Positions 7,973 through 27,028 of a stretch of 64,000 nt of DNA are shown here, in pieces. The DNA lies in NCBI RefSeq assembly GCF_003044305.1, contig NZ_PZOX01000005.1:451493-515492 (forward strand). The letters are read 5' to 3'. Below the pieces are notes generated by a model that had not been told where the DNA came from, did no database searches, and was given only the letters and a program-made list of their open reading frames with translations. The first letter of the stretch is position 1. Every line of letters begins with the position of its first letter. The stretch comes from Vitiosangium sp. GDMCC 1.1324 (GTDB lineage: Bacteria > Myxococcota > Myxococcia > Myxococcales > Myxococcaceae). Position numbers and translations under genes: made by a program.

Positions 7973-8121
7973 ACCTCCCGTGAACCCCGTGTGCCCGCAC
8001 GTAGCGATGCCCGCTCCCTCATCCTAGCGACCGAAGTCTCGGAGAGAGCGGGCATCTCGATGTCTCTATCCCCTCATGTGTCTCCTCCCATGCTTGGGGT
8101 CCCCCCTTCTGGCTCACTCCT

Positions 8122-9360: not shown

Positions 9361-9391
9361 GACCTGCTCCTTCGGAATCGTTCGCCCGGTC

Positions 9392-9431
9392 CGTGCCGGG
9401 CACGCGAGGGGGTAGAGCAGGCCGCGTGCCA
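9392..9431 (-). promoter_or_regulatory. putative sigma-54 promoter for rtcBA (minus-strand TTGGCACGcggcCTGCT, plus coords 9431-9416) plus a 6-1-6 perfect palindrome cgtgcc-g-ggcacg (9392-9404)
   Basis: Matches -24 TGGCACG and -12 (C/T)TGC with canonical spacing, ~50 nt upstream of rtcB. It lies in the divergent intergenic region shared with the sigma-54 activator gene rtcR. Confidence 0.4.
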
Positions 9432-9501
9432 ACGTCCTTCCCGAGGGAGAACGCGAATCCCCTGCCCGTCTTCCTATCCTCCAGGATAAAGTCCTATCCG
9501 C

Positions 9502-11539: not shown

Positions 11540-11909
11540 ATGACTCGTGCATACGATCTTCCCGGTGCCGTGCAGTGGCATGAAGGAATGCTGCTCGCAC
11601 CCCAGCACTTCCAACAGCAGGACCGCCGATACGAGGCGCTGCTGCACTTCCATCTCGGCCTGGACATACCCTTCCACTGGGGCGTGAGCCAGCTCCAGTA
11701 TGACTGGGTCTTCCAGTCCTCCACCTTCACGCAGCCCTCGCTGCTGCGCGGCCTCTACTTCTGCGGTGCCCTCCCACCTGCTGGAGCGCAAGGCCTTCCC
11801 CGAGAGCGGACTGGCCAGCCCGAATGTCGAGGCCGCGCGCATCAACCGGCGGGGCGCCTCACCCTTCGATGACGCCCCCCCGCCCCCACCCTCCTCCCCG
11901 AGCCCCCAG
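11540..11909 (+). pseudogene. remnant in-frame fusion of tssK N-terminus (~50 codons) to an internal segment of the tssM-like gene, with a frameshift
   Basis: MTRAYDLPGAVQWHEGMLLAPQHFQQQDRRYEALLHFHLGLDIPFHWGVSQLQYD is ~80% identical to the N-terminus of TssK at 27028. It continues as VFQSSTFTQPSLLRGLYFCG (vs LFESSPYTEPALLRGIYFCG in the 23211-24827 protein). In another frame it reads HLLERKAFPESGLASPNVEAARINRR (vs QLLERKAFPESGLASPEAEALRKNRR). Confidence 0.6.
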
Positions 11910-11911
11910 CC

Positions 11912-13006
11912 ATGGACGACATGAACCCCGCCTCTCCACTGGACCTCGAGCCGATCCTGCGGCCGATCTCCCCCGACGCGCCCTCGGGACGCAGCCTGCG
12001 CTACGAGCCCCTCTACGATCAGATCCGCGAGGCGCGCCGCGAGGATGACCCCTCGCTGCCCCAGGGCGTCTGGCAGACCTCCCTCAAGCGCGCCAACTGG
12101 GCCCAAGTGACCGAGCTCTGCCAGCAGGCCCTGGCGCACGAATCCAAGGACCTGCAGCTGGCCACCTGGCTCACCGAGGCCTGGGGAATCCAGCAGGGCT
12201 TCCCGGGCGTGGCGCAGGGACTGAGCCTGACCACCGCGCTGGTGGATCGCTTCTGGGATTCCCTGTGGCCGGCCCTCGAGGACGAGGATGCGGAGGCCCG
12301 GCTCGCCCCCCTGGCATGGCTCGACGACAAGCTTCCCCTCGTCCTGGGCAAGGTGCCCCTCGTCAAGGCGCAGACTCCCGGCGGCGTGAGCATTGACTTC
12401 GCGGCCTGGCAGCGGATCCTCCACCGGGAGAAGCACCAGGGAGCTGGCCAGGACGAATCGAGCCCAGAGAAAGCCGGGGCCTCGAGTGGCCCTCTGAACC
12501 GGGAGACCTTCCTGGCCAGCGCCGCGCTGATGCCAGCCCCCGCCCTCGACATGCTCGCGCGAGGGGTGGACGCCGCACTGGCGGCCAGCTCCGCACTGGA
12601 GCAGGCCCTCGACTCGCGGCTGGGACGAACCAGCGCGGCACTGCGCCGCACCCGCTCCACCCTCGGCGACCTCCAGACGCTGGTCTCCACGCTGCGCGCC
12701 AACACCCCTCGGGAGGAACCCGGAGCGGGAGTCGAAGCCCCGCTGGACACGGCGGTCGCGGACATGCCCTCGGTACCGGGGCGGCGTTCGGGCGCCATCC
12801 GTAGCCGGGAGGAGGCCTACCAGATGCTGGCCCTCGCCTCCGACTACCTGCGGCGTACCGAGCCCCACAGCCCCGTCGCCTACCTGGTCAAGCGCGCCGT
12901 GAGTTGGGGACAGATGCCGCTCGCCCAGCTCCTCTCGGAGCTCGTCCCCGATTCCTCCAACCTGGAAGCCATCCAATCTCTGCTCGGCATGAAGAAAGCG
13001 GAGTGA
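11912..13006 (+). CDS. tssA: type VI secretion protein TssA (ImpA N-terminal domain)
   Basis: PISPDAPSGRSLRYEPLYDQIREARREDDPSLPQGVWQ is the ImpA_N signature. 364 aa. Confidence 0.8.
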   Translation: MDDMNPASPLDLEPILRPISPDAPSGRSLRYEPLYDQIREARREDDPSLPQGVWQTSLKRANWAQVTELCQQALAHESKDLQLATWLTEAWGIQQGFPGVAQGLSLTTALVDRFWDSLWPALEDEDAEARLAPLAWLDDKLPLVLGKVPLVKAQTPGGVSIDFAAWQRILHREKHQGAGQDESSPEKAGASSGPLNRETFLASAALMPAPALDMLARGVDAALAASSALEQALDSRLGRTSAALRRTRSTLGDLQTLVSTLRANTPREEPGAGVEAPLDTAVADMPSVPGRRSGAIRSREEAYQMLALASDYLRRTEPHSPVAYLVKRAVSWGQMPLAQLLSELVPDSSNLEAIQSLLGMKKAE

Positions 13007-13026: not shown

Positions 13027-13494
13027 ATGACACAGAGCAAGCAGCTCCGCGGATTCCCGGCCCCGCTGTTCGACAGGCTGATGGACCTGGAGACCGTCCC
13101 CGCCGTGCTGGATGAGCAGGAATTGCGCGCCTCGGTGAGGCGCGAGGTGGCCCATGCGCTGAGCACCCGCTGCATGCTCTCCCTGGAGCAGGCGGATGCG
13201 CTCGAGCCACACGAGCGCTCGGTCCTGGACTATGGGCTGCCCGACCTGCGGACACTCGGCTCCACCGCCGACGCCGCCCGGCAACTGGAGCGGATCATCT
13301 CCCGCGCGGTGGAGGCCTACGAGCCACGCCTGCGGCAACTCCGGGTCTCCGTGCGGCTTCCTCCCGAGGAGGAAGGCCTCCCCGTCGCGGTGATCACCGC
13401 CCGGCTGGTGCACGAGCCCATGACGGAGCCCATCACCTTTCCGCTGCAGCTGGACCGGAGCGGGAGGCTGTTGGAGGTGGGCGAGGAGCGCTGA
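13027..13494 (+). CDS. tssE: T6SS baseplate protein TssE (gp25-like)
   Basis: PLFDRLMDL...ASVRREVAHALSTRCMLSLEQ...VLDYGLPDL...RAVEAYEPRL is the GPW/gp25 family pattern. 155 aa. Confidence 0.75.
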   Translation: MTQSKQLRGFPAPLFDRLMDLETVPAVLDEQELRASVRREVAHALSTRCMLSLEQADALEPHERSVLDYGLPDLRTLGSTADAARQLERIISRAVEAYEPRLRQLRVSVRLPPEEEGLPVAVITARLVHEPMTEPITFPLQLDRSGRLLEVGEER

Positions 13495-13553: not shown

Positions 13554-14129
13554 ATGACATACATCAACATGACGACGGGACTGCTGAATGCGACGTACAG
13601 ATTGCTCGCCGAGTCGGCGAAGAATCCCGTCGAGGTCGGACTGCTGATGCGTTGGAACGAGGACGACCGTTACCTCTGGACGATCTGGTCCGAGGCATAC
13701 CATCCGGGCATCGTCACCAGCTATTCCTCGGCTGGGATGAGACGCGATGTCGGTGGGCATGCCGAGGAGATATTGATCAAGAATTGGAGGGGATACGAGC
13801 AAGAGGCGGGTTTCCGCCCCCGGATCGTCGATCTGATCCTCACCAAGCTTCCCTGCTTCATGACTTCGAATGCCGTGACGCTGGGCACGCGTCAACTGCC
13901 CGTGGGTTGTGCCGGCAAGCTCAAGGTGCTCATCGAGGAGATACAGCCCGGCGTGCTCGATTGGCGGCTCGCCTATTTCAGGGAGCTGAACCCCGGCCCC
14001 AACTCGGATATCGAGAACGGTGGATCCCTGTCGCTCCTGAGCACAATCCAAAAGCTGTCGGTCTACTCATTCTTGGATCACCATTCCTTCGTGGCGCAGG
14101 GCTTCGGGGATGGGCTGACGATTGCCTGA
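13554..14129 (+). CDS. hypothetical protein, lower GC than neighbours; candidate deaminase-like fold (HAE ... PC motif spacing)
   Basis: 191 aa. Contains GGHAEEILIKNW followed ~29 aa later by LTKLPCFMTSNAV. RBS ggaaaggag upstream. GC visibly lower than flanking T6SS genes. Confidence 0.55.
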   Translation: MTYINMTTGLLNATYRLLAESAKNPVEVGLLMRWNEDDRYLWTIWSEAYHPGIVTSYSSAGMRRDVGGHAEEILIKNWRGYEQEAGFRPRIVDLILTKLPCFMTSNAVTLGTRQLPVGCAGKLKVLIEEIQPGVLDWRLAYFRELNPGPNSDIENGGSLSLLSTIQKLSVYSFLDHHSFVAQGFGDGLTIA

Positions 14130-14213: not shown

Positions 14214-14723
14214 ATGCCCACAAAGGAAAGCATCCAACACGTTCTGGATCGGGTCCGCCCTCCGCGGGTGCAGATCACCTACGACGTGGAGATTGGTGAC
14301 GCGGTGGAACAGAAGGAGCTGCCGCTGGTGGTCGGCGTCCTGGCGGACCTGGCCGGCCAGCAGAAGGAGCTGCCTCGGTTGAAGGAGCGCAAGTTCGTGG
14401 AGATCGACCGCGACAACTTCAACAAGGTGATGGCGGCCATCGGGCCCCAGCTGCGGATGTCCGTGCCGGACAAGCTGCGCGACGATGGCGGCAGCATGGC
14501 CGTGGAGCTGCGCTTCAAGAGCATCGACTCCTTCCACCCGCGCCAGCTCGTCGAGCAGATAGAGCCCCTGCGGAAGCTGCTGGAGGCGCGCCAGCGGCTG
14601 GTGGACCTGCTCGCGAAGCTGGACGGCAATGACGCGCTGGCGGAGCTGCTGCGGTCCGCGCTGGAGGACAGGGCTCGCCTCCAGGCGCTCGAGTCCGAGC
14701 TGGCGGCGAAGCGCGAGCAGTGA
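14214..14723 (+). CDS. tssB: T6SS contractile sheath small subunit TssB (VipA)
   Basis: MPTKESIQHVLDRVRPPRVQITYDVEIGDAVEQKELPLVVGVLADLAGQ; 169 aa. Confidence 0.9.
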   Translation: MPTKESIQHVLDRVRPPRVQITYDVEIGDAVEQKELPLVVGVLADLAGQQKELPRLKERKFVEIDRDNFNKVMAAIGPQLRMSVPDKLRDDGGSMAVELRFKSIDSFHPRQLVEQIEPLRKLLEARQRLVDLLAKLDGNDALAELLRSALEDRARLQALESELAAKREQ

Positions 14724-14764
14724 GCACCCGTACCCATCCACACACACGACACGGAGAGAGAGAG

Positions 14765-16261
14765 ATGTTCCAGGAAGAAATGAAGGAAGAGGCACGGGGT
14801 ACCCAGACGGCGGTGACGGAGCCGGAGCGGGGACTGCTGGCGCGCATCATCGAAGAGGGCAGGCTGGCGCGCGACGACAGCCAGCAGCCCCGCGCCCGCG
14901 AGCTGGTGGGCGAGCTGGTGAGCCAGGCGCTCTCCACGGAGTCCATTCCCAGCGGCATGGACGTGGTGTCGCTCATCAACCAGCGCATCGCCCGCATCGA
15001 CGAGCTGCTGGGCACTCAGCTCGACGAGGTGCTCCACGCCGAGCCCTTCCAGCGGTTGGAGGCCTCCTGGCGGGGGTTGCACATGCTGGTCCATGGCACC
15101 GAGACGGGGACGAACCTGAAGCTGCGCGTGCTGCACGCCACCAAGAAGGAACTGCTGGATGACCTGGAGCGGGCGCCCGAGTTCGACCAGAGCGCCCTCT
15201 TCAAGAAGGTCTACGAGGAGGAGTACGGCACCTTCGGCGGTCAGCCGTACGGGGTGCTCATCGGCGACTACGAGTTCGGCCGGGTGCCCCGGGACGTGGC
15301 GCTGCTGGAGTCCATCTCCCACGTGGCCGCCGCCGCCCACGCCCCTTTCATCACCGCGGCCAGTCCCTCGCTGTTCGACCTGGACAGCTTCACGGACATT
15401 GGCGCCCCGAGGGACCTGGCGCGCATCTTCGAGAGCACCGAGCTCATCCGCTGGCGGAGCTTCCGGGATTCGGAGGACGCCCGCTACGTGTCGCTGGTGT
15501 TGCCCCATGTGCTGGGAAGGCTGCCCTATGGCGAGGACACCCAGCCGGTGGAGGGCTTCGGCTACCAGGAGGACGTGGACGGCAGGGATCACCGCAAGTA
15601 CCTGTGGGGCAACGCGGCGTACGCCCTGGGCCTGCGTATCACCGCCGCCTTCGCGCTCTACCAGTGGTGCGCCAACATCCGCGGGGTGGAAGGGGGCGGC
15701 ATCGTCCAGGGGCTGCCCACGCATACCTTCCGCACCGACGAGGGGGACATCGCCCAGAAGTGCCCCACCGAGGTGGCCATCACCGACCGGCGTGAGAAGG
15801 AGTTGAGCGACCTGGGCTTCATCGCCCTGTGCCACTGCAAGGGAACCGACTACGCGGCCTTCTTCGGCTCGCAGACGGCCAACAAGCCCCGCCGCTACGA
15901 CACGCCCCAGGCCAATGCCAACGCGGAGCTGTCCTCCCAGCTGCCCTACATCCTGTCCTCCTCGCGCTTCGCCCACTACCTCAAGGTCATCATGCGCGAC
16001 AAGATTGGCGGCTTCGCCTCGCGCGAGGAGATCTCCGACTACCTCAACCGGTGGATCAGCCAGTACGTGCAGACGAACGAGAACGCATCCTTCTCCATCA
16101 AGGCCCGCCAGCCGCTGCGCGAGGCGCAAGTGGACGTCACCGAGGTGCCGGGCCACCCTGGCAGCTACCGGGCGGTGGTGTTCCTCCGCCCCCACTTCCA
16201 GCTCAACGAGCTGACCGCCTCCATCCGCCTGGTGGCCGAGCTGCCCAAGTCGGCCGCGTGA
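14765..16261 (+). CDS. tssC: T6SS contractile sheath large subunit TssC (VipB)
   Basis: ~498 aa with conserved TssC core (..YGVLIGDYEFG.., ..LPHVLGRLPYGE.., ..GLPTHTF..). ATG 14765 preferred over GTG 14720 (RBS ggagagag). Confidence 0.9.
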   Translation: MFQEEMKEEARGTQTAVTEPERGLLARIIEEGRLARDDSQQPRARELVGELVSQALSTESIPSGMDVVSLINQRIARIDELLGTQLDEVLHAEPFQRLEASWRGLHMLVHGTETGTNLKLRVLHATKKELLDDLERAPEFDQSALFKKVYEEEYGTFGGQPYGVLIGDYEFGRVPRDVALLESISHVAAAAHAPFITAASPSLFDLDSFTDIGAPRDLARIFESTELIRWRSFRDSEDARYVSLVLPHVLGRLPYGEDTQPVEGFGYQEDVDGRDHRKYLWGNAAYALGLRITAAFALYQWCANIRGVEGGGIVQGLPTHTFRTDEGDIAQKCPTEVAITDRREKELSDLGFIALCHCKGTDYAAFFGSQTANKPRRYDTPQANANAELSSQLPYILSSSRFAHYLKVIMRDKIGGFASREEISDYLNRWISQYVQTNENASFSIKARQPLREAQVDVTEVPGHPGSYRAVVFLRPHFQLNELTASIRLVAELPKSAA

Positions 16262-16319: not shown

Positions 16320-16781
16320 ATGGCTTCAAGCATTTATCTCAAGATCGCCAAGGCAGAGGGCAGCTCGCAGACCGATAAATTCAAGGACCAGATCGAGGTC
16401 CTCTCCTACCGTTATGAAATCGCCTTCCCCATGACGCTCAACGAGCGGTCCAACAAGGACGGGGGGATCGTCCGGCAGGGCCGCTCCGATCACGGACAGG
16501 TCGTCATCACCAAACACGTGGACAAGGCCTCGCCCAATCTCTTTCTGTCCTGTTGCGTAGGGGATAGCGTCGGCAACGCCACCCTCACCGTGAGTGGAAG
16601 CAAGGACAAAAAGATTTTCACCTACGAAATGACAGACGTCATCATCACCTCGGTCGCCGTCGGGGGCGGGGGCTCGGACGACCCGGTGGAGACGGTGAAG
16701 CTCGACTACGGCACCATCAAATGGGCGCAGGGCGAGAGCAACTCGACGAAGTGGGATCGCAAGAAGAACGAGTCGACCTGA
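16320..16781 (+). CDS. hcp: Hcp (TssD) tube protein
   Basis: MASSIYLKIAKAEGSSQTDKFKDQIEVLSYRYEIAFPM...; 153 aa, Hcp1 family. Confidence 0.85.
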   Translation: MASSIYLKIAKAEGSSQTDKFKDQIEVLSYRYEIAFPMTLNERSNKDGGIVRQGRSDHGQVVITKHVDKASPNLFLSCCVGDSVGNATLTVSGSKDKKIFTYEMTDVIITSVAVGGGGSDDPVETVKLDYGTIKWAQGESNSTKWDRKKNEST

Positions 16782-16831
16782 GCCAGAAGACAGACACGCA
16801 CACGACAGCGGCGGACGAGTGGAGGAGAGCA

Positions 16832-18649
16832 ATGGGCAGCAGTCAAGAAGAGTTGCTCCAGGCCTACCAGCGGGAGCTGGCATGGCTGCGCGGGGCGGGA
16901 GCGGAGTTCGCGGCCAGCTACCCCAAGCTGGCAGCGAGGCTGCGGCTGGGGGCCAGCGAGGTGGGCGATCCCCACGTGGAGCGCCTCATCGAGTCGTTCG
17001 CCTTCCTCACCGCGCGCGTCCAGCACGCCTTCGACAGCGACCTGCCGGAGCTCTCCACCGCCCTGCTGGGCCTGCTGGCTCCCCACCTGGTGGAGCCACT
17101 GCCCTCGCTGTCCATCGCCTGCTTCGAGGTGGATACGGCTGCCGGCCTGCCCCTGGCCGGCAGCCGTATCGAGCGCGGCACGCTTCTGCTGGCCGAGCCG
17201 CGCCCGGGGCAGACGTGCCGCTTCCACACCTGCTCCCCGGTGACGCTCTGGCCGCTGCGGGTGGCGGAGGCGAGCCTGGAGTCCCCGCTCTCCTTCGGCT
17301 GGCTGCGCGGGCGGCGGGACGTGTCGGCGGTGCTCCGGCTGCGGTTGGAGGCCAGCGAGGCCCGGCTGGCGGACCTGCAGTTGGATCGGCTCCAGTTCTT
17401 CCTCGACGGGCCCCCCGAGGTGACCTTCCGCCTCTTCGAGCTGTTCACCTGCCATGCCCGGGACGTGGCGCTCGTGCCGGACGGCTCGCCCGGCGAGCCC
17501 CGCTTCCAGCCCGCGGACAGCCTGCGGCAGCTCGGCTTCGGCCCCGAGGAGGCGGTGCTGCCTTCCCCGCCCCACCTCCACCGCGGCTACCGCCTCCTAC
17601 AGGAGTACTTCGCCTTCCCCGAGAAGTTCCTCTTCTTCGAGCTGGCGCTGGAGCGCGCGTGCGTCCAGGCCTCCCAGCAGGCGCTCGAGGTGCTCGTGCT
17701 GCTGGATGCCACGCCCGGCGAGGACCTCGCGCTCACGCCCGAGACGTTCCGGCTGGGCTGTACCCCCATCGTCAATCTCTTCCCCCAGCTGGCCGAGCCC
17801 ATCCGGTTGGACCAGCGCCGCACCGAATACCCGCTGGTGCCCGACTACCGCCGCCAGCAGGAGCTGGAGCTGCACTCCGTGCTCTCCGTCACCGCCGCCA
17901 CGGAAGGTGCCGGGCACCCGCAGGTGGTGGAGCCCTTCTTCTCCTGGCGCCACCGGGAGGACGAGCAGGAGCCGCGCGCCTTCTGGTACGCACGGCGCCG
18001 GCCCACGGGCCGCGCGCTGGGGCCCGGCTCCCAGGTGATGCTGTCCTTCGTGGACCTGGCGCTCGACCCCCACCTGCCGGCGGAGCAGACGCTGAACGTG
18101 CGCACGCTGTGCACCAACGGGGAGCTGCCCGTGCAGCTCGCGCCCGGCTCGGAGCTCCAGGTGGAGGAGCGCGTCCCCGTGGGCGCCATCCGCTGCCTGC
18201 GCCGTCCCACGCCGCCTCGCGCGCCCCCGGACCGGGGCCCCATGCTCTGGCAGCTCGTCTCGCTGCTGTCGCTCAACCACCTCTCGCTCGCCAACGGCCC
18301 CCAGGCGCTGGAGGCGCTCGAGGAGCTGCTGCGGCTGCATGACTTCTCCGGCGGCCAGGTGTGCGAGCACCAGCTCCAGGGCCTGACGGGAATGGAGAGC
18401 CGCCCGGTGGTGCGCCAGCGCGGCTGGGATGCCTGGCGGGGTTTCTGCCGGGGCCAGGAGATCACCCTCACCTTCGACGAGTCCCTCTACGTGGGCGGCA
18501 GTGCCCTGCTCCTCGCGGCGGTGCTCCATCACTTCTTCGGCCTGTACGCCCCGGTGGATTCCTTCACCCAGCTCGCCGCGAGGAGCGAGCAGCGAAAGGA
18601 CACATGGAAACGATGGCCCCCCATGGCCGGCGACGCGCCCCTGGTGTAG
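16832..18649 (+). CDS. tssF: T6SS baseplate protein TssF (ImpG/VasA)
   Basis: MGSSQEELLQAYQRELAWLRGAGAEFAASYPKLAARLRL...DPHVERLIESFAFLTARV is the TssF N-terminal signature. RBS ggaggagagc. Confidence 0.85.
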   Translation: MGSSQEELLQAYQRELAWLRGAGAEFAASYPKLAARLRLGASEVGDPHVERLIESFAFLTARVQHAFDSDLPELSTALLGLLAPHLVEPLPSLSIACFEVDTAAGLPLAGSRIERGTLLLAEPRPGQTCRFHTCSPVTLWPLRVAEASLESPLSFGWLRGRRDVSAVLRLRLEASEARLADLQLDRLQFFLDGPPEVTFRLFELFTCHARDVALVPDGSPGEPRFQPADSLRQLGFGPEEAVLPSPPHLHRGYRLLQEYFAFPEKFLFFELALERACVQASQQALEVLVLLDATPGEDLALTPETFRLGCTPIVNLFPQLAEPIRLDQRRTEYPLVPDYRRQQELELHSVLSVTAATEGAGHPQVVEPFFSWRHREDEQEPRAFWYARRRPTGRALGPGSQVMLSFVDLALDPHLPAEQTLNVRTLCTNGELPVQLAPGSELQVEERVPVGAIRCLRRPTPPRAPPDRGPMLWQLVSLLSLNHLSLANGPQALEALEELLRLHDFSGGQVCEHQLQGLTGMESRPVVRQRGWDAWRGFCRGQEITLTFDESLYVGGSALLLAAVLHHFFGLYAPVDSFTQLAARSEQRKDTWKRWPPMAGDAPLV

Positions 18650-19632
18650 CCCAGGAGCTCTTCGAGTCCGGCCACCGCTTCGACTTCTTCCAGGCCATGC
18701 GCCTGCTGCGCCTGCTCCGCCCGAAGGATCCGGTGCGGCTGCGCGCCTCGGTGGACCTGGCCTTCCCTCCCAGCGACATCGTCCAGGTGAAGCCGCCCGC
18801 GAAGCCGGGGGCCGCACCGGAGATGACGGTGGCCTTCCTCGGACTGGGCGGGGTGCAGGGGCCGCTGCCGAGGCCCTTCGCCCAGCAGCTCCGGGACCGC
18901 ACGCGCGCGGGAGACACCGGGCTGCGCGACTTCCTGGACATCTTCCACCACCGGCTGCTGTCGCAGCTCTACCAGGGGCGGGTGCTGCGCCGGGTGTGGC
19001 TGGAGCCGGGCCCGCCCGAAGCACACGCCGTGGCGCGCTACCTGTATGCGGTGATGGGCCTGGGCACCCGGGGCATGCGCGAACGGCTGGAGGTGGAGGA
19101 TCGGCTGCTGCTGCGCTACGCCGGGCTGCTGGCGCACCGGCCCGTGTCCCTGGAGGCGCTGCGGGCGATGCTCTCGGACGCGCTGGGGGTGGGGGTGAGG
19201 CCGCGGGCGCCCCGGGGCGCCTGGCTGGAGCTGGAAGAGGAGCAGCGCACGCGCCTGGGCCCCACCGGACGCAACCAGCGGCTCGGCCAGGGCGCGGTGC
19301 TCGGCGGGCGCGCCTGGCTGGAGCAGGCGGGCCTGGAGCTGGAGCTCGGGCCCCTCTCCTGGCGCCGCTACGTGGACCTGCTGCCCGGTAGCCGGGGACT
19401 GGGCGCCCTGCGCTCGCTCACCCGCTTCGCGCTGGGCCCCGGCCCCGAGGTGCGCCTGGTGCTAGCGGTGCGCACCGGGGAGATCCCCGAGCAACCCCTG
19501 AGCGCTCCGCACGGCCCGCGCCTGGGGTGGACGTCCTGGCTGAGAGCCAGACCGGGCCGGCAGGGAACGCAGGCGGTGGCGCTCTCGCCCCGTCACATGT
19601 CCGCGCCAGGCGCGCGGGAGGATGGAACATGA
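18604..19632 (+). CDS. tssG: T6SS baseplate protein TssG (ImpH)
   Basis: ...GHRFDFFQAMRLLRLL... is the TssG N-terminal motif. Start ambiguous (ATG 18604, 18613 or 18626); overlaps the tssF 3' end. Confidence 0.8.
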   Translation: METMAPHGRRRAPGVAQELFESGHRFDFFQAMRLLRLLRPKDPVRLRASVDLAFPPSDIVQVKPPAKPGAAPEMTVAFLGLGGVQGPLPRPFAQQLRDRTRAGDTGLRDFLDIFHHRLLSQLYQGRVLRRVWLEPGPPEAHAVARYLYAVMGLGTRGMRERLEVEDRLLLRYAGLLAHRPVSLEALRAMLSDALGVGVRPRAPRGAWLELEEEQRTRLGPTGRNQRLGQGAVLGGRAWLEQAGLELELGPLSWRRYVDLLPGSRGLGALRSLTRFALGPGPEVRLVLAVRTGEIPEQPLSAPHGPRLGWTSWLRARPGRQGTQAVALSPRHMSAPGAREDGT

Positions 19633-21479
19633 GGTCGGGATACACGCAGGACAACGTCTACCTCTCCGTCACCACGCCCCTGGGCAAGGACGTGCTGCTG
19701 CTGCACGGCATCCAGGGCGAGGAGGCCCTCTCCCAACCCTTCCACTTCACCCTGGAGCTGCACTCCGATCGGCTCGACGTGGACTTCTCGCGGGTGGTGG
19801 GCAAGAGCGCCACCATCTCCCTGGCCCAGCGGGACGGCAGTGAGCGCTTCTTCCACGGCATCATCACCCGCTTCGTCCAGGCCGGCACCTTCGCGGACTT
19901 CACCCGGTACATCGCCGAGCTGCGCCCCTGGTTCTGGCTGCTCACCCTCACCCGCGACAGCCGCATCTTCCAGAACCAGACGGTGCCGCAGATCCTCCAG
20001 CAGCTCTTCCAGGACCAGGGCTTCACCGACTTCCGGCTGGCGCTGCGGCGCACCTACACCCCTCGCGAGTATTGCGTGCAGCACCAGGAGTCCGCCTTCG
20101 ACTTCGCCTCGCGGCTGATGGAGGACGAGGGCATCTTCTACTTCTTCGAGCACACGAAGGACCGGCACACGCTGGTGCTGGCAGACGACGCGGCGGCCCA
20201 TGTGCCCTGCCCGGGGCCCGGGGTGGCGAAGGTCCAGGGGCACCTGAACGCGGCGCGGACGGAGGATGCCGTCACCGGGTGCGAGCTGGAGCAGCAGGTG
20301 GTGCCCGGGCGCTATGCCCTGGGGGACTACTTCTTCGAGACGCCGTCGACCCGGCTCCAGACCCAGGTGAAGGGCAAGGAGGGGAGCCAGGAGCAGTACG
20401 AGTACCCCGGGGACTTCACGCGCCGGGACGTGGGCGAGCGGCGCGGCCGGGTCCGGCTGGAGGCCCACGAGGCGCAGGCCCGGACCCTGCGAGGCCAGGG
20501 CCACGTGCGCTGGTTCATCCCCGGCTACCGCTTCACCCTCGCCGAGCACGAGCGCAAGGACCTCAATGGGGCGTACGTGCTGCGCTGGGTGTCGCACTCG
20601 GCCACGGTGGAGGCGTACTCCAACAGCTTCGAGGCCTTCCCCGCCGCCACGCCCTTCCGTCCGCCCCGGGTGACGCCCCGGCCGGTGGTCCACGGCGTCC
20701 AGAGCGCCCGGGTGGTGGGCAAGGCGGGCGAGGAGATATGGACGGACCGGTTCGGCCGGGTGAAGGTCCAGTTCCACTGGGACCGCGAGGGCAAGAAGGA
20801 CGAGAGCAGCTCGTGCTGGATGAGGGTGGCCCAGGGCCAGGCCGGCAAGGGCTGGGGCAACTTCTTCCTGCCCCACGTGGGCCAGGAGGTGCTCGTCACC
20901 TTCCTGGATGGGGATCCGGATCGGCCCATCGTCACCGGCTCCGTCTACAACGCCGAGCAGGTGGTGCCCTATCCGCTGCCCGCCGGACAGACCAAGAGCA
21001 CGTTGCGCGGGGATTCCTCCGGCAAGGGGGAGCCCAATGAGCTGCGCTTCGAGGACAAGAAGGGCGCGGAAGAGCTCTACCTGCACGCCCGCCGGGACAT
21101 GAAGACCACCGTGGCGCGCGACAGCGTGACGGAGATTCAAGGCAACTGCACCATCCGGGTGCGGGGCAACCTCACCCTGGACGTGGGGGGTTCCATCAAA
21201 ATCAAGGCGGGGAGGAGCCTCACCCAGGAGGCGAAGATGTCGCTGACGAGCATCGCGGGGATGAACCTCACCCAGAAGGCGAAGCTCGCCCTGGAGAGCT
21301 CGGCGGGAACGATGCTGATGCACAAGTCCAAGCTCATGATGATGAACGACGCCCAGATGCTGCTCAGCAACGTCAAGACAATGCACGTGCTCAAGGGGAT
21401 GCCCATGATGCTCCAGCTTCCGTTCCTCCCTGTCCCGGCGGGGGTGCCTCCACTCCCACCGATTCCGGACACCCCCTGA
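19629..21479 (+). CDS. vgrG: VgrG (TssI) spike protein, core only, no C-terminal effector extension
   Basis: MRSGYTQDNVYLSVTTPLGKDVLLLHGIQGEEALSQPFHFTLEL... (gp27-like), then gp5-like OB and beta-helix; 616 aa. ATGA start/stop overlap with tssG. Confidence 0.9.
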   Translation: MRSGYTQDNVYLSVTTPLGKDVLLLHGIQGEEALSQPFHFTLELHSDRLDVDFSRVVGKSATISLAQRDGSERFFHGIITRFVQAGTFADFTRYIAELRPWFWLLTLTRDSRIFQNQTVPQILQQLFQDQGFTDFRLALRRTYTPREYCVQHQESAFDFASRLMEDEGIFYFFEHTKDRHTLVLADDAAAHVPCPGPGVAKVQGHLNAARTEDAVTGCELEQQVVPGRYALGDYFFETPSTRLQTQVKGKEGSQEQYEYPGDFTRRDVGERRGRVRLEAHEAQARTLRGQGHVRWFIPGYRFTLAEHERKDLNGAYVLRWVSHSATVEAYSNSFEAFPAATPFRPPRVTPRPVVHGVQSARVVGKAGEEIWTDRFGRVKVQFHWDREGKKDESSSCWMRVAQGQAGKGWGNFFLPHVGQEVLVTFLDGDPDRPIVTGSVYNAEQVVPYPLPAGQTKSTLRGDSSGKGEPNELRFEDKKGAEELYLHARRDMKTTVARDSVTEIQGNCTIRVRGNLTLDVGGSIKIKAGRSLTQEAKMSLTSIAGMNLTQKAKLALESSAGTMLMHKSKLMMMNDAQMLLSNVKTMHVLKGMPMMLQLPFLPVPAGVPPLPPIPDTP

Positions 21480-21495: not shown

Positions 21496-22119
21496 GTGCC
21501 AACGGAAATCATCGAGAAGGACGAGCGGGGGCAGGTGCGCGAGCGTTACTTCGAGGACGACGAGGGCCGTCTGGAGGGAGTGGCCAGCCACTATGACGAG
21601 GACGGCCGGCTCGTCCAGGAGTCGCACTGGCGCGCGGGGACACTACACGGCCCCACGAGCTCCTACGGCCCCGACGGCCAGCTGTTGCAGCGGGTCCTGT
21701 TCGCGGACGGCCAGTTGCATGGACCGGCGGAGCTCCAGGACGAGCAGGGACGCCTGCGCATGCAGCTCGGATTCCACGAGGACAGGCCGCATGGCGAATT
21801 GCTCGCCTGGCAGGACGGCCAGCCCCTGATGAAGCACACCCTGGCGGAGGGCAGGCCCGAGGGTCCGCTCGAGCTCTATGAGGACGGCAAGCTCACCCGC
21901 CGGGTGCTCTTCGAGCGGGGATGGCCCCTGGACCAGGGACAGCCCCCGGAGCAGGCCTCGAAGGCTCAAGACGCGAAGGCTCAAGACGCGAAGGCTCAAG
22001 ACTCGATGGCTCCTGGACCGGAGGCCTCCGGGGACATTCCCTTGGAGCAGGAAGAGCAGGCACGGGCGCCACTCGACACCTGGTTCCAAGGCTGGCTCCG
22101 GGGAAGCGGCGGCTCCTGA
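21496..22119 (+). CDS. MORN-repeat-variant (YwqK-like) protein, possible VgrG-associated immunity/accessory protein
   Basis: Repeats of type G.L.G....Y..DGQL (HYDEDGRLVQESHWRAGTLHGPTSSYGPDGQLLQRVLFADGQLHGP...). C-terminal low-complexity KAQDAKAQDAKAQD. Confidence 0.55.
   Translation: MPTEIIEKDERGQVRERYFEDDEGRLEGVASHYDEDGRLVQESHWRAGTLHGPTSSYGPDGQLLQRVLFADGQLHGPAELQDEQGRLRMQLGFHEDRPHGELLAWQDGQPLMKHTLAEGRPEGPLELYEDGKLTRRVLFERGWPLDQGQPPEQASKAQDAKAQDAKAQDSMAPGPEASGDIPLEQEEQARAPLDTWFQGWLRGSGGS
21961..22005 (+). repeat. 15-bp tandem repeat x3 (aaggctcaagacgcg) encoding KAQDA repeats
   Basis: Seen directly in the sequence. Confidence 0.9.
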
Positions 22120-22260: not shown

Positions 22261-23087
22261 CTACGGCTGGATGTTCTTGTTCAACCGGAAGAAGTTGGTC
22301 GGGTCGTAGGTGCGCTTCAGGGCGGTGAGGCGCTTCCATTTGGCCTCGCCGTACGTCTCCCGCACACGCCCGGCGGGCTCGTCGGCGTCGATGAAATTGA
22401 GCGGGGTCCCCCCGCTCGAGAAGGAGTGGGCGGCTTGCCAGGCGTCCTGCACCCAGCGAGTGTGGCGCTCGGCGTCGGCCGGGTCTCTCCAGCTCGACTG
22501 GAACATCGAAAAGAAAGGCGACGCGCGCCCCGAGAATGCGGTCTCGTCCTCGCCAACCCACGCGATCGCGCCCTTCATATGGGCGAGCTCCAGGAAGCAG
22601 AGGGACGACGGGGCCGCTCGAAGCTGCGCGGTGATGGCCTCGATGGCCTCCTCTCCCAGCTTGGAGAGATAATCCGAGCGGATGGCTTGACTGTAGCCAT
22701 GGGCAGCCCCCGGTCCCGAATCGAGTACCTTCTGATGACCCCCGCCTGAATGCGCGCGGTGCGCCGCGCTGGATCGACGCGGATGCCCTTCATGAGGGAG
22801 AGATCGATCACCAGGCCGCCGTCGCACACGCCGTTGCCGGCGACATCGTGCCCGCCGCCCCGCACCGCGACCAGCGCGTCGTGCTCCCGCGCGAACCGCA
22901 CGGCGGCGAGGGACATCGGCGGCCCCGGTGCATCGAGCGATCAACGCCGGCCGCTTGTCGATCCGAGCATTCCAGACGACGCGGGCCGCGTCGTAGCGCG
23001 GGCTGCCGGGGCAATGAGCTCGCCGCGAAAGTTGGACCGAAGCGAGTCGAGCGCGGATTGCTTGAAGCGAGCTCCCTGGGAATTCAT
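22261..23087 (-). pseudogene. decayed FAD-linked oxidase (BBE/PCMH-type) gene: three frames, internally deleted
   Basis: Frame 1: MNSQGARF...IAPGSPRYDAARVVWNARIDKRPALIARCTGAADV. Frame 2: AVRFAREHDALVAVRGGGHDVAGNGVCDGGLVIDLSLMKGIRVDPARRTARIQAGV (FAD_binding_4). Frame 3: ...GEDETAFSGRAS...YGEAKWKRLTALKRTYDPTNFFRLNKNIQP (BBE C-terminus). Total span ~830 nt versus ~1.4 kb expected. Confidence 0.55.
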
Positions 23088-23210
23088 GGTGGAAGGCCTC
23101 CTGGCGCCGAAGGGCGGGAAACCGCGGCGGCGGATGATGTGCGGCACGAGCAGGATGAGCACTTCCGTCCCCGGGCGGTGGAGATGCCGCCCAGGGAGGG
23201 GAGGGGCGCT

Positions 23211-24827
23211 TCATCCCTGGGGAATGACGATCTGCTGGCCCGGCATGAGGTTGTCTTTGTTGAGGCCGGGGTTGGCCTCCACGATGCGAGGCCATTGATT
23301 GCCGTCGTGCAGGTAGCGCTGGGCGATGTCGTAGATGATGTCGCCCGGCTTGACGGTGTAGAGCGTGCCCTTGGGTTTGTCCTTGGGCGCGTACTGGGAC
23401 GCGTACTGGGACGCGGAGGCCACGGGGCCCGTCTGGTTGGTCCAGCGGGGGCGCCCATCCGGGCCGCGGATGAGCAGGATGCCGTCGTCCCGCATCACCA
23501 GCTCGCTCTTCTCCTGGCCCTGGGTCTTGCTGCTCCACACGGGCGCATTGGCGGCCTGGTACACGACGAGATTGCCGTCGCGCTGCATGGCCGTGCGCCA
23601 GGCCCGCTTGCCCTGGGTGTTGGTGGCCCAGCGGGCCTGCTGGGTGGTCAGGTCGTAGATGACGAGGTTGCCGTCGTCCTGGTACACGAGGGCGAAGCGG
23701 CCGTTGGCGGAGACGAGCCGCTCGCCGGGCGTGAGGAACGCGTTGTCCCCTCCGCGCAGCACGCTCTTGGAGCCTCCGAGGAACACGCCCAGGAGGATCA
23801 GGAGCACGCCCAGCAGCACGCTCGCCGCGAGCCCTGCCTTGAGCAGGGTCAACTGCCGCCGGTTCTTGCGCAGGGCCTCGGCCTCGGGACTCGCCAGGCC
23901 GCTCTCGGGAAAGGCCTTGCGCTCCAGCAGCTGGGTGATGAAGGCCGGAGAGCGGGGCTCGCGCAGCCCGTCCCGGCCCGGCCGGAGGACACCTTCCGCG
24001 TCCGGATCCCCGCAGAAGTAGATGCCTCGCAGCAGCGCGGGCTCCGTGTAGGGGCTGGACTCGAAGAGTCCATCGAGCAGCCGCCGCACCGGCTCGGCCA
24101 TGTCGCGCAGCTGGGAGGGGAAGAGGAAGGCGGACTCGCGCTCGGCCGCGGTGCCGCGCCCATCGGCGAACAGCTCCAGCTGCATCGTGCACAGGCCCTG
24201 GTGGATGCTGGCGAAGGCCTCGTTCACCCACGCGGAGATGTACGGCTCCTGGGGCGGGTGGGGAGTGGACCAGCCGAGCATCTCCTCGCGCAGGCTCGGT
24301 GGCAGGGAGCGGCACCACGCCGTGAAGCCGGGGAGGACGTCACACTGGGTGATGACGACGTAGATGGGGAAGCGCACGCCCAGCTCGCCGCGCAGGGACT
24401 GCAAGCCCTGGAAGAGGGCACGCGCCTTGCGGTCGAGTCCGACGTCGTCGAGCGCCTGCGGGCCCATCAGCTCATGGGCCGGTATCGTGAGCAGCACGCC
24501 GTCGATGGGGCGCTGGCCCCGCACGCGGCGCAGATCTCTCAGCACGCCCTGGAACTCGGGCCCCGGCTCCTCCGTCAGGCCGGGCATGTCGATGACGGCG
24601 CCCTGGTCGTAGAGCCAGACGCCCCAGCCCTCGGCCTCCATCTCCTTGCGGCTGGGCGTACCGTAGGGACGGCGCAGGTGGGCGCCCGCGGCCAGCGAGG
24701 TGCGCCCCGAGCGCGGCTCTCCCACGAGCATGAGCCAGGGCAGTTGGTAGCGGCGATTGCGACGGGTGCCGGTGGCCCCGATGCGGTCGATCGCCGTGTC
24801 GATGGGAGATTTCTGGAGGGCGGTCAT
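23211..24827 (-). CDS. TssM/IcmF-like N-terminal NTPase domain protein fused to TM helix, bulb-type lectin (B_lectin) and C-terminal LysM domain
   Basis: Start MTALQK (ATGA overlap with tssL stop). YQLPWLMLVGEPRSGRTSLAAG (degenerate P-loop), PIYVVITQCDVLPGFTAWC (ImcF-related N-domain). TM LLKAGLAASVLLGVLLILLGVFLGG. Two QxDGNLVxY lectin motifs. LysM YTVKPGDIIYDIAQRYLHDGNQWPRIVEANPGLNKDNLMPGQQIVIP. Confidence 0.7.
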   Translation of the reverse strand: MTALQKSPIDTAIDRIGATGTRRNRRYQLPWLMLVGEPRSGRTSLAAGAHLRRPYGTPSRKEMEAEGWGVWLYDQGAVIDMPGLTEEPGPEFQGVLRDLRRVRGQRPIDGVLLTIPAHELMGPQALDDVGLDRKARALFQGLQSLRGELGVRFPIYVVITQCDVLPGFTAWCRSLPPSLREEMLGWSTPHPPQEPYISAWVNEAFASIHQGLCTMQLELFADGRGTAAERESAFLFPSQLRDMAEPVRRLLDGLFESSPYTEPALLRGIYFCGDPDAEGVLRPGRDGLREPRSPAFITQLLERKAFPESGLASPEAEALRKNRRQLTLLKAGLAASVLLGVLLILLGVFLGGSKSVLRGGDNAFLTPGERLVSANGRFALVYQDDGNLVIYDLTTQQARWATNTQGKRAWRTAMQRDGNLVVYQAANAPVWSSKTQGQEKSELVMRDDGILLIRGPDGRPRWTNQTGPVASASQYASQYAPKDKPKGTLYTVKPGDIIYDIAQRYLHDGNQWPRIVEANPGLNKDNLMPGQQIVIPQG

Positions 24828-25657
24828 CGGCGGTTCTCCTGGGCGGTGCGGGCGGCCGCGGGAGTGTGGTCGTGAGAGGTGTTGAGGACGATGGCGGTGG
24901 GGACGAGGACGAGGATCGCGGCGGCGATACCGGCGGCCCAGGGCCAGCGCGGCGCGAGCCGCCGATCCGAGCGCTCGTCCAGGGTGTGCGCGTAGGTCTG
25001 GGGCAGCAGCCGGCGCGACGGCGCGTCGGGCTCGGGCGGGCGTTGGTGGATGAGCACGTAGAGCTGGCGCTGCAGATCCTGCAGGAGCGCCTCCTCGCCG
25101 TGCTCGCGGTAGCGGCCCTGGAAACCGAGCGCGAGCATCAGCAGGTACACTTCGGCCATCTCGGCCTGGGTCGGGTCGCGGTCCTGCAGCAGGCGCTTCA
25201 CGTCTTCGAAGATGCGCTCGCCGGCGTGGTGGGTGCCAAAGAGCACGTCCTCCAGCAGGCCCTCGCGCCAAGCATCACGGCCGTACCACGGGGTGTTGAC
25301 GAGCACCTCGTCGGCGAAGCTGGCCATCACGTAGCGGCACTGCTCGAGCTGGCGCTCCTGGAGCGAGCCGCGGGGGGCGCCCTCGAGCCGGCTCTGCTGC
25401 TCCACGCGCGCGAGCAGTCGCTGGCGGATCTCCTCGACACTGGGGCCCTGCCGCCCCTGTCCGGAGGGGCGGGAGATGGCCTGCAGGCGTTGGCGCAGCT
25501 CGAGCAGCTCCGTGAAGAGCGTGCGGGTGCGCTCGAGCAACAGGGAGGAGCCGGACGGCTCATCGAAGAAGGGAGGCGTGTTCATGGCGGAAGAGGGCTC
25601 GCGGCGCCTGCCCCGGTCGTTCCAGGACGAGGAGGCGGAATGGGATGACGGACTCAT
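24824..25657 (-). CDS. tssL: T6SS membrane protein TssL (DotU family)
   Basis: LEQCRYVMASFADEVLVNTPWYGRDAW...FGTHHAGERIFEDVKRLL...EVYLLMLALGFQGRY plus C-terminal TM AAGIAAAILVLVPTAIVL. Alternative start ATG 25585. Confidence 0.8.
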   Translation of the reverse strand: MSPSSHSASSSWNDRGRRREPSSAMNTPPFFDEPSGSSLLLERTRTLFTELLELRQRLQAISRPSGQGRQGPSVEEIRQRLLARVEQQSRLEGAPRGSLQERQLEQCRYVMASFADEVLVNTPWYGRDAWREGLLEDVLFGTHHAGERIFEDVKRLLQDRDPTQAEMAEVYLLMLALGFQGRYREHGEEALLQDLQRQLYVLIHQRPPEPDAPSRRLLPQTYAHTLDERSDRRLAPRWPWAAGIAAAILVLVPTAIVLNTSHDHTPAAARTAQENRR

Positions 25658-25714: not shown

Positions 25715-27028
25715 TCACGGCTCGTTGCGGATGAGCAGGGAGATATCGGCGGCGGCCTGCACCTCTCCGGGCTCCAGCGTGTTCTCGAGCAACAGCCGCT
25801 CATCGGGCCGGAGGTAGAAGGGACTGGCCTCCAGGGAGAAGAGGAGCGCACCAGGGCGGGGCACCAGGCCCGCGGGGGGCTCGATGAGCTCGCGCCGGGC
25901 CCCGAGCGTGCGCGTCTCGCGCATCTGCCGGTGGCGCGTGTCCGAGCCGATGCGGCACCCGGCCATCCATCCCAGCACCTGCTGCCGCGTGGTGCCCGGA
26001 CGGCCGCGCACTTCGAGCACCATCTCGCGGCCCATCCACGCGGGGAGCAGGCGCGTGTGGAAGCCGCTGCCCTCGGGAGTGAGCTGCACCCGCGTGTACG
26101 CCTCGGAGAGGCCCCGCTCCAGCGCGCCCTCGACGAAGTCGAACACCTGTTGGAAGGAGCGCAGCGGATCCAGGTGCTCGTACGCGGGGAACGCGGGAGG
26201 GATGCGCACCTCCGCGACGTGGGCGACCTGGCCGGCCAGGGAGCACAACGCGAGGTAGAGGGTGAAGGGGTGCACCTCGCCGGAGCGCAGCAGGGCCTCG
26301 TAGGGCGGCAGCCCGGCCACGAGCCAGTGCAGCTGACGCTGGTGCTCGGCGAGCACGTGCGGCTCGTCGGCGGCGTCGCGCATGGCCTCCACCAGGTGGG
26401 CGGCTTTCTGCCGGACGCGCAGGGAGAGCCGGTCACAGCGCTCGCCGAGCGTCGAATCCAGGCCCACGGCGAGCAGCGGCGGCAGGTAGTCCTCCACGGC
26501 GAAGGACTCGCCCAGGCGGCGCACCTCCACGAGCGGCAGGGAGGCGTACCCGGCGGGAGGCAGGCCGGCGAACAGCTGCAGGCGCGGGGTGAGCTGGGGG
26601 ATGCTCAGCGGCGTGTCCCCGGTGCTCTCGTCGACGAGCGGCTCGCTGGTGGTGGACACGAAGCGGCTGGGATTGCTCGTGCGCCCGGTGGGCACGCCCA
26701 CGTGCAGACGCACCGGGTGCTGCCAGTTCACCTCGGTGAGGCCCGCGAAGGCGAGTTGGAGGGGCGGGGCTCCTTCTCCCGCCTGGTACGAGAGGAACAG
26801 CCCATCGGGCAGCAGGGCCTCCAATTCCCGGAGCTGGAGGGTGCCCGCCACCAGGCGCGTGCGGTCGTACTCCAGCCGGCTCACGCCCCAGTGGAAGGGC
26901 GCGGCCCGCTGGAGATGGAAGTGCAGCAGCGCCTCGTGGTGCTGGTCCTGCTGTTGGAAGTGTTGGGGGGCCAGCAGCATGCCCTCGTGCCATTGCACGG
27001 CGGAGGGAATCGGCGGGGTGGGAGGCAT
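25715..27028 (-). CDS. tssK: T6SS baseplate protein TssK
   Basis: MPPTPPIPSAVQWHEGMLLAPQHFQQQDQHHEALLHFHL... is the canonical TssK N-terminus; 437 aa. Confidence 0.85.
   Translation of the reverse strand: MPPTPPIPSAVQWHEGMLLAPQHFQQQDQHHEALLHFHLQRAAPFHWGVSRLEYDRTRLVAGTLQLRELEALLPDGLFLSYQAGEGAPPLQLAFAGLTEVNWQHPVRLHVGVPTGRTSNPSRFVSTTSEPLVDESTGDTPLSIPQLTPRLQLFAGLPPAGYASLPLVEVRRLGESFAVEDYLPPLLAVGLDSTLGERCDRLSLRVRQKAAHLVEAMRDAADEPHVLAEHQRQLHWLVAGLPPYEALLRSGEVHPFTLYLALCSLAGQVAHVAEVRIPPAFPAYEHLDPLRSFQQVFDFVEGALERGLSEAYTRVQLTPEGSGFHTRLLPAWMGREMVLEVRGRPGTTRQQVLGWMAGCRIGSDTRHRQMRETRTLGARRELIEPPAGLVPRPGALLFSLEASPFYLRPDERLLLENTLEPGEVQAAADISLLIRNEP

Follow-up and report, generated by a model that had tools for sequence, protein, structure and literature searches.

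Type VI secretion systems (T6SSs) of the proteobacterial type possess a TssJ-TssL-TssM complex that is treated as their obligatory envelope-spanning anchor and conduit. Canonical TssM touches TssL and the TssK/TssG baseplate with its cytoplasmic domain, and its periplasmic domain together with TssJ makes up the part that spans the envelope. That T6SS-type machines can function when the TssJLM complex is altered, reduced or missing is illustrated by T6SSiv of Amoebophilus and by two further cases: Bacteroidota have swapped all three TssJLM proteins for the unrelated TssNOPQR proteins (PMC10781749), and in Citrobacter, where TssM1 occurs in length variants, the full-length form is still needed (PMC4256274). 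Anchoring of the membrane complex to peptidoglycan is required in enteroaggregative Escherichia coli (EAEC) (PMC13584744; PMC8253398). TagP (PP3090 of P. putida) is a TssM homologue with an OmpA-type peptidoglycan-binding domain that is encoded by an accessory gene (PMC13584744). Here we describe a T6SS cluster of the predatory soil myxobacterium Vitiosangium sp. GDMCC 1.1324, contained in a window of 64,000 nucleotides (the whole stretch of DNA that was analyzed; contig NZ_PZOX01000005.1, positions 451,493 to 515,492), and in particular its tssM' gene, which codes for a short TssM.

The tssM' product appears to be the only TssM-type subunit of a compact operon, tssK-L-M'-A-(E)-B-C-hcp-(E)-F-G-vgrG, that is found in the Archangiaceae and lacks clpV, a TssJ-like lipoprotein and the periplasmic domain of TssM. 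Unlike the Bacteroidota systems, the cluster keeps TssL and half of TssM. Our best reading, to which we assign a probability of roughly 55%, is that the operon codes for a membrane complex that would be confined to the inner membrane and tethered to peptidoglycan.

The tssM' gene and its product

tssM' lies on the minus strand at 23211-24827 (ATG at 24827, stop at 23211-23213) and codes for 538 amino acids (aa) plus stop (539 codons). Its product is 100% identical to the NCBI protein P0001 of Vitiosangium sp. GDMCC. A sequence-only reading of the locus had proposed a TssM/IcmF-type cytoplasmic domain followed by one transmembrane (TM) helix, a bulb-type lectin and a C-terminal LysM domain, and Pfam, NCBIfam, the Protein Data Bank (PDB) and an AlphaFold model together bore out this order. 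The cytoplasmic GTPase-like/IcmF-related_N domain (23862-24827, minus strand, aa 1-322) holds YQLPWLMLVGEPRSGRTSLAAG at aa 27-48 and PIYVVITQCDVLPGF at aa 154-168. PF14331 (IcmF-related_N) matched aa 91-328 with an E-value of 6.6e-52, so that the assignment of the N-domain is supported by the kind of domain search to which the sequence-only reading had left it. In the AlphaFold model (mean predicted local distance difference test score 83), the N-domain is alpha/beta and was likened by Foldseek to GTPases such as Era, that is, to the small-GTPase fold; a beta-rich domain covers residues 370-463. The G-motif-like elements, all on the minus strand, are the P-loop GEPRSGRTS (24696-24722, aa 36-44), a DxxG-like IDMPG (24579-24593) and the TxxD motif ITQCD (24339-24353). 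The P-loop carries Arg at the position of the Lys and does not match the Walker A pattern GxxxxGK[ST].

The NCBIfam model for TssM, TIGR03348, aligned with aa 16-350 only, through its positions 97-454 of 1168, and scored 161 bits against a cutoff of 388, so that equivalog membership failed. This partial match implies that the protein has neither the TM region at the N-terminus nor any of the periplasmic part. Pfam found neither PF06761 (ImcF-related) nor PF06744 (IcmF_C) in the protein, and tblastn with the periplasmic domains of the closest long relatives (described below) found nothing in the window, in agreement with the claim that the large TssM periplasmic domain is missing. Despite the failed equivalog test, the protein is truly homologous to the cytoplasmic half of TssM. 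A hydropathy scan detected a single hydrophobic segment, at aa 326-352 (23772-23852, minus strand), and none before aa 326; in the AlphaFold model a continuous helix spans residues 316-349. Basic residues flank the TM helix on its N-side, which predicts an N-in/C-out topology and would therefore place the lectin and the LysM domain in the periplasm. A hidden N-terminal TM extension was considered and rejected: the upstream in-frame stretch, open to 25271, is rich in Arg and Pro, lies off-frame within tssL and holds no TM segment.

Like canonical TssM (TIGR03348; SciS of EAEC or ImpL of A. tumefaciens), the protein combines homologous GTPase-like and IcmF-related_N domains with a following TM helix, is encoded directly after tssL in a T6SS cluster and presumably docks the baseplate. 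Unlike canonical TssM, it has no N-terminal TM segment, no PF06761 or PF06744, no Walker A Lys and no TssJ partner in the locus. The upstream gene tssL (DotU; 24824-25657, minus strand) codes for 277 aa with a C-terminal TM segment, and neither Pfam nor NCBIfam detected a peptidoglycan-binding domain in it. The tssM' start overlaps the tssL stop by 4 nt (ATGA, in ...cAGGAGaaccgccgATGAcc...) and a Shine-Dalgarno sequence, AGGAG, sits 8 nt upstream. The two genes thus appear to be translationally coupled, as had been proposed. No terminator was found right after tssM', and a sigma-70 promoter scan around tssK-tssL-tssM', which does not cover myxobacterial promoters, found nothing.

The bulb-type (beta-prism II) lectin spans aa 360-466 (23430-23750, minus strand). 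Two of its predicted sugar sites, QDDGNLVIY (23655-23681, minus strand, aa 383-391) and QRDGNLVVY (23559-23585, minus strand, aa 415-423), are intact, and the third, RDDGILLIR (23466-23492, minus strand, aa 446-454), is degenerate; the aligned relatives with a lectin share this pattern of conserved sites I and II and a degenerate site III. The Pfam B_lectin match (PF01453, E = 3.4e-5) stayed below threshold, with a score of 24.7 versus a gathering score of 32.4. The identity of the lectin is nevertheless secured by an NCBIfam match to the putidacin L1 lectin (E = 3e-25), by phmmer matches to pyocin L2 and putidacin L1 in the PDB (E = 2e-19 to 1e-18) and by the AlphaFold model, in which the lectin superposes on monocot mannose-binding lectins with template modelling scores of 0.76-0.80 and root mean square deviations of 1.8-2.4 Å (Foldseek). 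A low-complexity linker of ~20 aa (23370-23429, minus strand) leads to the LysM domain (23214-23369, minus strand, aa 487-538). PF01476 matched it at aa 490-536 with 46 bits versus a cutoff of 20.9 (E = 5e-12), and the model shows a beta-alpha-alpha-beta fold with strands at 488-491 and 532-535 and helices at 497-507 and 513-518. Both the two clear bulb-lectin motifs and the canonical LysM domain of the sequence-only reading were hence recovered.

LysM domains bind the glycans of peptidoglycan or chitin. In M. xanthus, the LysM protein TsaP ties the secretin to peptidoglycan. TsaP, seen in the structure of the type IV pilus machine (PDB 3jc8), is among the PDB LysM matches of the tssM' product. 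The closest lectin homologues are Myxococcales-type proteins in which, according to precomputed Pfam assignments, the lectin is attached to hydrolases, among them GH25 lysozymes, an NlpC/P60 protein and peptidases, in keeping with a binding module directed at the cell wall. Lectin-like bacteriocins (putidacin L1, pyocin L1/L2) and a LysM-lectin of M. smegmatis share fold and motif with the lectin (E = 2e-19 to 1e-17), and since the M. smegmatis chain in PDB 4oit is named LysM domain protein, the pairing of LysM and lectin exists elsewhere. None of these proteins, nor TsaP, belongs to a T6SS or is fused to a TssM domain.

A short TssM family and its long relatives

At least five genera of the Archangiaceae encode short TssM homologues of 410-545 aa in their T6SS operons, and such homologues also occur in metagenome-assembled genomes (MAGs) and metagenomes. 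In Melittangium boletus and Archangium gephyra, a single operon runs tssK-tssL-tssM'-tssA-...-vgrG-MORN, with the same 4-nt overlap with tssL. The order tssK-L-M'-A with a short form is also present in Cystobacter fuscus, Hyalangium versicolor, A. minus, A. lansingense and two MAGs, and short TssM proteins were recovered from H. minutum, C. ferrugineus and A. violaceum. Across aligned members, the first ~350 residues are 56-75% identical with many invariant positions. Ratios of nonsynonymous to synonymous substitution rates (dN/dS; NG86 method, among Vitiosangium, Melittangium and the Cystobacter MAG), which are rough because dS is compressed at a third-position GC content of ~90%, were 0.30-0.35 for the N-domain as compared with 0.22-0.28 for tssK and 0.30-0.42 for tssL, 0.33-0.53 for LysM and 0.5-1.9 for the linker. 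The short family appears to be under constraint similar to that on tssK and tssL. A truncated pseudogene, the possibility against which the sequence-only reading had wanted related genomes compared, was rejected: equally short genes take the same operon position in Melittangium, Cystobacter, Archangium and Hyalangium, constraint and coupling are kept, and a lost module was replaced (see below).

The family differs in its C-termini. Lectin and LysM together were seen only in Vitiosangium, M. boletus and the Cystobacter MAG (L004), and the metagenomic member P0003 has the lectin without LysM. All other short TssM proteins end in a proline-rich tail of ~80-130 aa, most with one to three [FW]DDAPPP motifs ~15 residues apart (P0004-P0020 and loci L005-L009). 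In a neighbour-joining tree built on the N-domains, without support values, the short forms are monophyletic and nested inside a clade of long proteins, the basal short-family member P0021 retains an N-terminal TM segment, and the lectin-bearing forms make up one subclade. As most members have no folded periplasmic domain, the lectin-LysM region cannot be 'the' replacement of TssM-TssJ, and LysM anchoring seems to be a lineage-specific add-on instead of a general substitute. The proposal of a peptidoglycan-anchored replacement for TssM-TssJ therefore stands only in part: the lipoprotein at the TssJ position is indeed absent from short-form loci, but the lectin and LysM are confined to one subclade.

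These observations also bear on a reading in which the lectin-LysM region would be a sensor of muropeptides or foreign glycans, reporting wall damage or prey contact through the TM helix to the GTPase-like domain and so controlling where and when the baseplate assembles. The small-GTPase fold with its conserved G-motif-like elements is in line with such a role, the lectin shows the fast evolution that is common among receptor domains, and related lectins sit on prey-directed enzymes. We nevertheless consider it distinctly improbable, because the Walker A Lys is replaced by Arg family-wide and other members of the clade have no P-loop, which argues against a nucleotide switch, and because most of the family has no folded periplasmic domain with which to sense.

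Complete short forms made up only two clusters among the 150 best matches in 1.84 billion representative proteins, and the next relatives in this search were 1040-1417 aa long and 39-50% identical. The nearest relatives came from a soil metagenome, Sorangium and Acidobacteriota (36-50% identity); the N-domain is 32-50% identical to that of ~1350-aa proteins of Sorangium, Acidobacteriota, Azospirillum and Ectopseudomonas. The 15 shorter matches that we inspected (365-711 aa) look like fragments of long forms, several of which start the periplasmic domain with FIPTSWF. The lineage of ~1350-aa TssM-like proteins (L010-L025, P0045-P0243) extends to Planctomycetota and others. In Acidobacteriota, Sorangium and metagenome loci the gene order is K-L-M-A-B-C-hcp-E-F-G where that much was recovered, with a long M, and these long proteins with an IcmF/TssM N-terminus are the true closest relatives of the short family. 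Ectopseudomonas shares a J-K-L-M-A block, with sheath and baseplate genes divergently upstream. The long relatives keep at least one N-terminal TM segment, a periplasmic domain of ~900 aa and, in most cases, a lipoprotein gene: a gene for a ~155-aa protein with a lipobox lies directly upstream of tssK in six of seven Acidobacteriota loci (no match was found in the remaining one, L011), in all eight Ectopseudomonas-type loci and in Sorangium. No clpV was seen in the long-lineage loci examined.

The P-loop of the long members is varied, with Arg (P0194, P0051), Gln, a fully degenerate sequence or GK[ST], and the P-loop Arg is invariant in 15 short-family members. The GR P-loop is therefore a trait of the clade and not random decay, and its description as degenerate was not upheld. 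By a simple hydropathy scan, most long relatives have one N-terminal hydrophobic segment and not the two that a hairpin would need. The sequence-only reading was thus right that tssM' has no N-terminal TM segment, but what most long relatives show in its place is a single segment instead of the hairpin it had named. The canonical TssM profile matches the long clade only in the cytoplasmic part. The periplasmic domain and the lipoprotein of the long relatives had no match in Pfam, NCBIfam or the PDB, and homology to canonical TssM-C and TssJ, respectively, was searched for and could not be shown.

Taken together, sequence similarity, gene order and the tree indicate that the short family descends from the ~1350-aa TssM-like proteins. 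In this descent, three things disappeared: the TM segment at the N-terminus, the periplasmic domain of ~900 aa and the lipoprotein gene that precedes tssK. The cytoplasmic GTPase-like domain with one TM helix was kept, and one short subclade then gained the periplasmic bulb lectin, followed by LysM in most of its members. In this order of events, the trans-envelope part was lost first and the glycan-binding module added later. Neither the lipoprotein at the TssJ position nor the long-form periplasmic domain was detected in any short-form locus or in the whole window. The closest long relative, P0045 (L026 4831-7953; 1040 aa, 50% identity), is without the last ~270 residues, and no lipoprotein gene lies upstream of tssK on its 10-kb contig; P0193, which is 78% identical to P0045, has 1280 aa. 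P0045 therefore looks like an intermediate and suggests a stepwise reduction. A split gene with a separately encoded periplasmic domain was sought in the window, in the relatives' loci and among 56 homologues seeded with P0045 and was not seen in these; all of the homologues carry PF14331, and none of them comes from the Archangiaceae. The lipoprotein family likewise had no Archangiaceae among 120 of its 220 matches.

The nearest named architecture is that of TagP, which also fuses an inner-membrane TssM-like N-part to a periplasmic wall-binding domain. P0030 shows the TagP layout: the TM hairpin and part of the ImcF-related domain are still there, the P-loop reads GK[ST], and the wall-binding domain is of the OmpA/MotB type. 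Unlike TagP, tssM' codes for the sole TssM homologue of its operon and carries a lectin and LysM but no PF00691. P0030 and tssM' fall on different branches of the tree, which points to convergence. The sequence-only reading did not recognize the architecture as described; this holds for the exact fusion, since our literature search found no short TssM, no TssM-lectin or TssM-LysM fusion and no Archangiaceae T6SS, and a 2026 review of T6SS accessory factors and full-text searches gave no LysM, lectin or myxobacterial short TssM. However, a TssM homologue with a peptidoglycan-binding domain already has a name in TagP.

TagP-type proteins are classed as accessory T6SS components, and M. xanthus has a canonical cluster. 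Both facts would fit a short TssM that acts as such an accessory, in partnership with TssM/TssJ (and ClpV) from another, canonical T6SS elsewhere in the genome. This account is very improbable in our view. The compact operon is otherwise complete, with tssK, tssL, tssA, sheath, baseplate and spike genes of its own, and its clade is distant from canonical TssM, whose profile matches the clade only in the cytoplasmic part. Moreover, the P0045-seeded long-form relatives and the 120 lipoprotein matches mentioned above include no Archangiaceae protein.

A displaced module and the surrounding cluster

The window holds tssA-G, hcp, vgrG, tssK and tssL. tssK (25715-27028, minus strand, 437 aa) is the first gene of an inverted tssK-tssL-tssM' module. 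The genes on the plus strand, identified with Pfam and NCBIfam and given from their first possible starts, are tssA (11912-13006), tssE (13027-13494), tssB (14214-14723), tssC (14720-16261), hcp (16320-16781), tssF (16721-18649), tssG (18361-19632) and vgrG (19527-21479), followed by a MORN-repeat gene (21496-22119); tssC, tssF and tssG probably begin further downstream than given. All 11 core open reading frames (ORFs) are intact, with near full-length profile coverage. No clpV (tssH), tssJ or second tssM was found among the ORFs scanned across the 64-kb window, and no clpV or tssJ in the relatives' loci. A PADLOC scan gave no match.

A decayed scar of an older tssK-tssL-tssM' module lies at 11540-11924 (plus strand) between rtcR and tssA, as revealed by tblastn and blastn against A. 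gephyra (L002). Here TssK aa 1-55 (82% to A. gephyra) are joined to pieces of a Pro-tail TssM' (aa ~250-272 and ~290-327) that carry frameshifts and end in ...SPFDDAPPPPPSSPSP. In A. gephyra, an intact Pro-tail K-L-M' module is found exactly at the equivalent position beside rtcR, and the intact replacement module of Vitiosangium lies 10 kb from the scar. TssK and TssL of the window have their closest relatives in Melittangium and L004 at 75-76%, as has TssM' at 69%, and for tssA to vgrG the closest counterparts are those of A. gephyra and C. fuscus (74-92%); the gene order in the window is A-E-B-C-hcp-F-G, not A-B-C-hcp-E-F-G. The differing closest relatives, together with the scar, indicate that the Vitiosangium cluster is chimeric and that a K-L-M' module of the lectin-LysM type displaced one of the Pro-tail type. 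Replacement of the lost module by an intact one speaks for a need for the module, and the displacement suggests that either tail type can take the other's place in the course of evolution.

The rearranged state of the window, with the inverted K-L-M' module, the scar and a frameshifted oxidase next to it, and the tssF of the A. gephyra type strain, which is called as two pieces, could be taken to mean that the cluster is a decaying, non-functional T6SS and tssM' a relic with fortuitous fusions. We regard this as highly improbable: the 11 core ORFs of the window are intact, as is the same gene set in at least five genera, the N-domain and LysM have dN/dS values well below 1, translational coupling to tssL is preserved, and the lost K-L-M' module was replaced and not simply dropped.

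Several further features of the cluster and its relatives were recorded. Directly downstream of tssM', FAD_binding_4 and BBE domains in two frames (22261-23205, minus strand) represent the frameshifted remnant of an FAD-linked oxidase, which may mark a rearrangement junction. An ORF of 191 aa without a Pfam match, orf191 (13554-14129, plus strand), lies between tssE and tssB; it has a GC content of 58.5% versus ~68%, its HAE...PC...C is reminiscent of deaminase zinc motifs, and Hyalangium versicolor has it in the same place (L007, 63% identity). The T6SS cluster adjoins an RNA-repair module, rtcA-rtcB/rtcR (6950-11136), in which rtcR codes for a sigma-54 activator, and an rtc neighbourhood beside the T6SS is also present in A. 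gephyra, A. minus and A. lansingense. In the A. gephyra type strain (CP011509, L003 15541-17357), tssF is called in pieces of 517 and 96 aa; in a second A. gephyra assembly (L002) it is intact at 605 aa, so that the split reflects either a sequencing error or a strain-specific frameshift. In Melittangium boletus (L001 12785-14740), tssB and tssC form one continuous ORF of 651 aa, a natural fusion of the sheath subunits. The Cystobacter MAG (L004 12754-13590) has no stop between tssB and the tssC start, and its locus ends at the contig edge. The two genes are separate in the window and in L005, L008 and L009.

Models of the membrane complex

In the reading that we prefer, TssM' and TssL would together make a docking platform for the TssK/TssFG baseplate at the inner membrane, a role that falls to the cytoplasmic domain in canonical TssM. 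The lectin would lie ~10 residues beyond the membrane, and LysM, on its ~20-residue linker, would grip glycan strands of the cell's own peptidoglycan. This grip would give the fixed wall anchoring that other T6SSs owe to the OmpA-type domains of TssL, TagL or TagP and to the connection that TssM and TssJ make with the outer membrane, and tube and spike would cross the wall and the outer membrane without a dedicated TssM-TssJ conduit. The tether is favored by the fact that TssL itself has no peptidoglycan-binding domain, although such a domain is needed elsewhere. TagL and 'evolved' TssL likewise place a peptidoglycan module, needed in EAEC, on an inner-membrane T6SS component (PMC8253398; PMC13584744), but theirs has the OmpA fold instead of a LysM/lectin fold and sits on TssL or TagL instead of TssM. 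More tentatively, and at what we judge to be somewhat less than an even chance, the same design may extend to an Archangiaceae T6SS-i as a whole, with a complex that stops at the inner membrane, consists of TssL and a half-size TssM without TssJ or conduit, carries interchangeable wall grips, either the Pro-rich [FW]DDAPPP tail or a lectin with or without LysM, and leaves the tube to cross peptidoglycan and outer membrane unaided.

A number of points weigh against an inner-membrane-only, wall-tethered complex. Most of the family has neither LysM nor lectin and ends in a Pro-rich tail, so that the short-TssM design cannot depend on peptidoglycan tethering. The usual ligands of bulb lectins are mannose or rhamnose rather than peptidoglycan. 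Evolution of the lectin is fast (dN/dS 0.47-1.2), and the ratios on which the argument from constraint draws are themselves rough, as noted above. The TssM C-terminal domain and TssJ are required in canonical systems (PMC4256274). M. xanthus, of the related family Myxococcaceae, has all 13 core T6SS genes, and its T6SS shows a periplasm-spanning density (10.1101/108233); as that cluster is canonical, the short-TssM system is not the known myxobacterial T6SS. Finally, the Vitiosangium genome may encode, outside the window, another complete T6SS or outer components that are not homologous to the known ones.

The last point leads to an alternative in which a trans-envelope complex persists through non-homologous periplasmic or outer-membrane proteins that are encoded elsewhere and recruited by the TssM' tail, be it the [FW]DDAPPP motifs or the lectin-LysM region. 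The one to three spaced copies of [FW]DDAPPP, a conserved short linear motif, in the Pro tails do look like a partner-binding site, the TssNOPQR proteins of Bacteroidota set a precedent (PMC10781749), and TsmK and TagV make up for a missing TssJ in other systems. Even so, we think this alternative unlikely. Genes flanking the operon differ between genomes, and the only accessory gene conserved with it is the MORN-repeat gene, which is present in the three loci in which the region downstream of vgrG was recovered; the MORN-repeat protein has no Pfam, PADLOC or NCBIfam match that would suggest export, no localization analysis having been made. In addition, the lectin-LysM region and the Pro tail are unrelated, yet one replaced the other in Vitiosangium.

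The analysis exposes a large and poorly annotated T6SS lineage in Sorangium, Acidobacteriota, Azospirillum and Ectopseudomonas. In the Archangiaceae, a whole bacterial family keeps an otherwise complete T6SS operon after losing half of TssM and the lipoprotein gene that goes with it in relatives. The short-TssM operon is thus a natural system for studying the minimal membrane anchor, channel-free crossing of the wall and the role of peptidoglycan-binding modules, and Vitiosangium, in which a Pro-tail module was displaced by a lectin-LysM module, offers a natural swap experiment. If the more tentative, family-wide form of our reading is true, the TssM-TssJ channel would be dispensable, and the inner-membrane-only complex of these bacteria would be an intermediate between trans-envelope T6SSs and anchor-free contractile injection systems.

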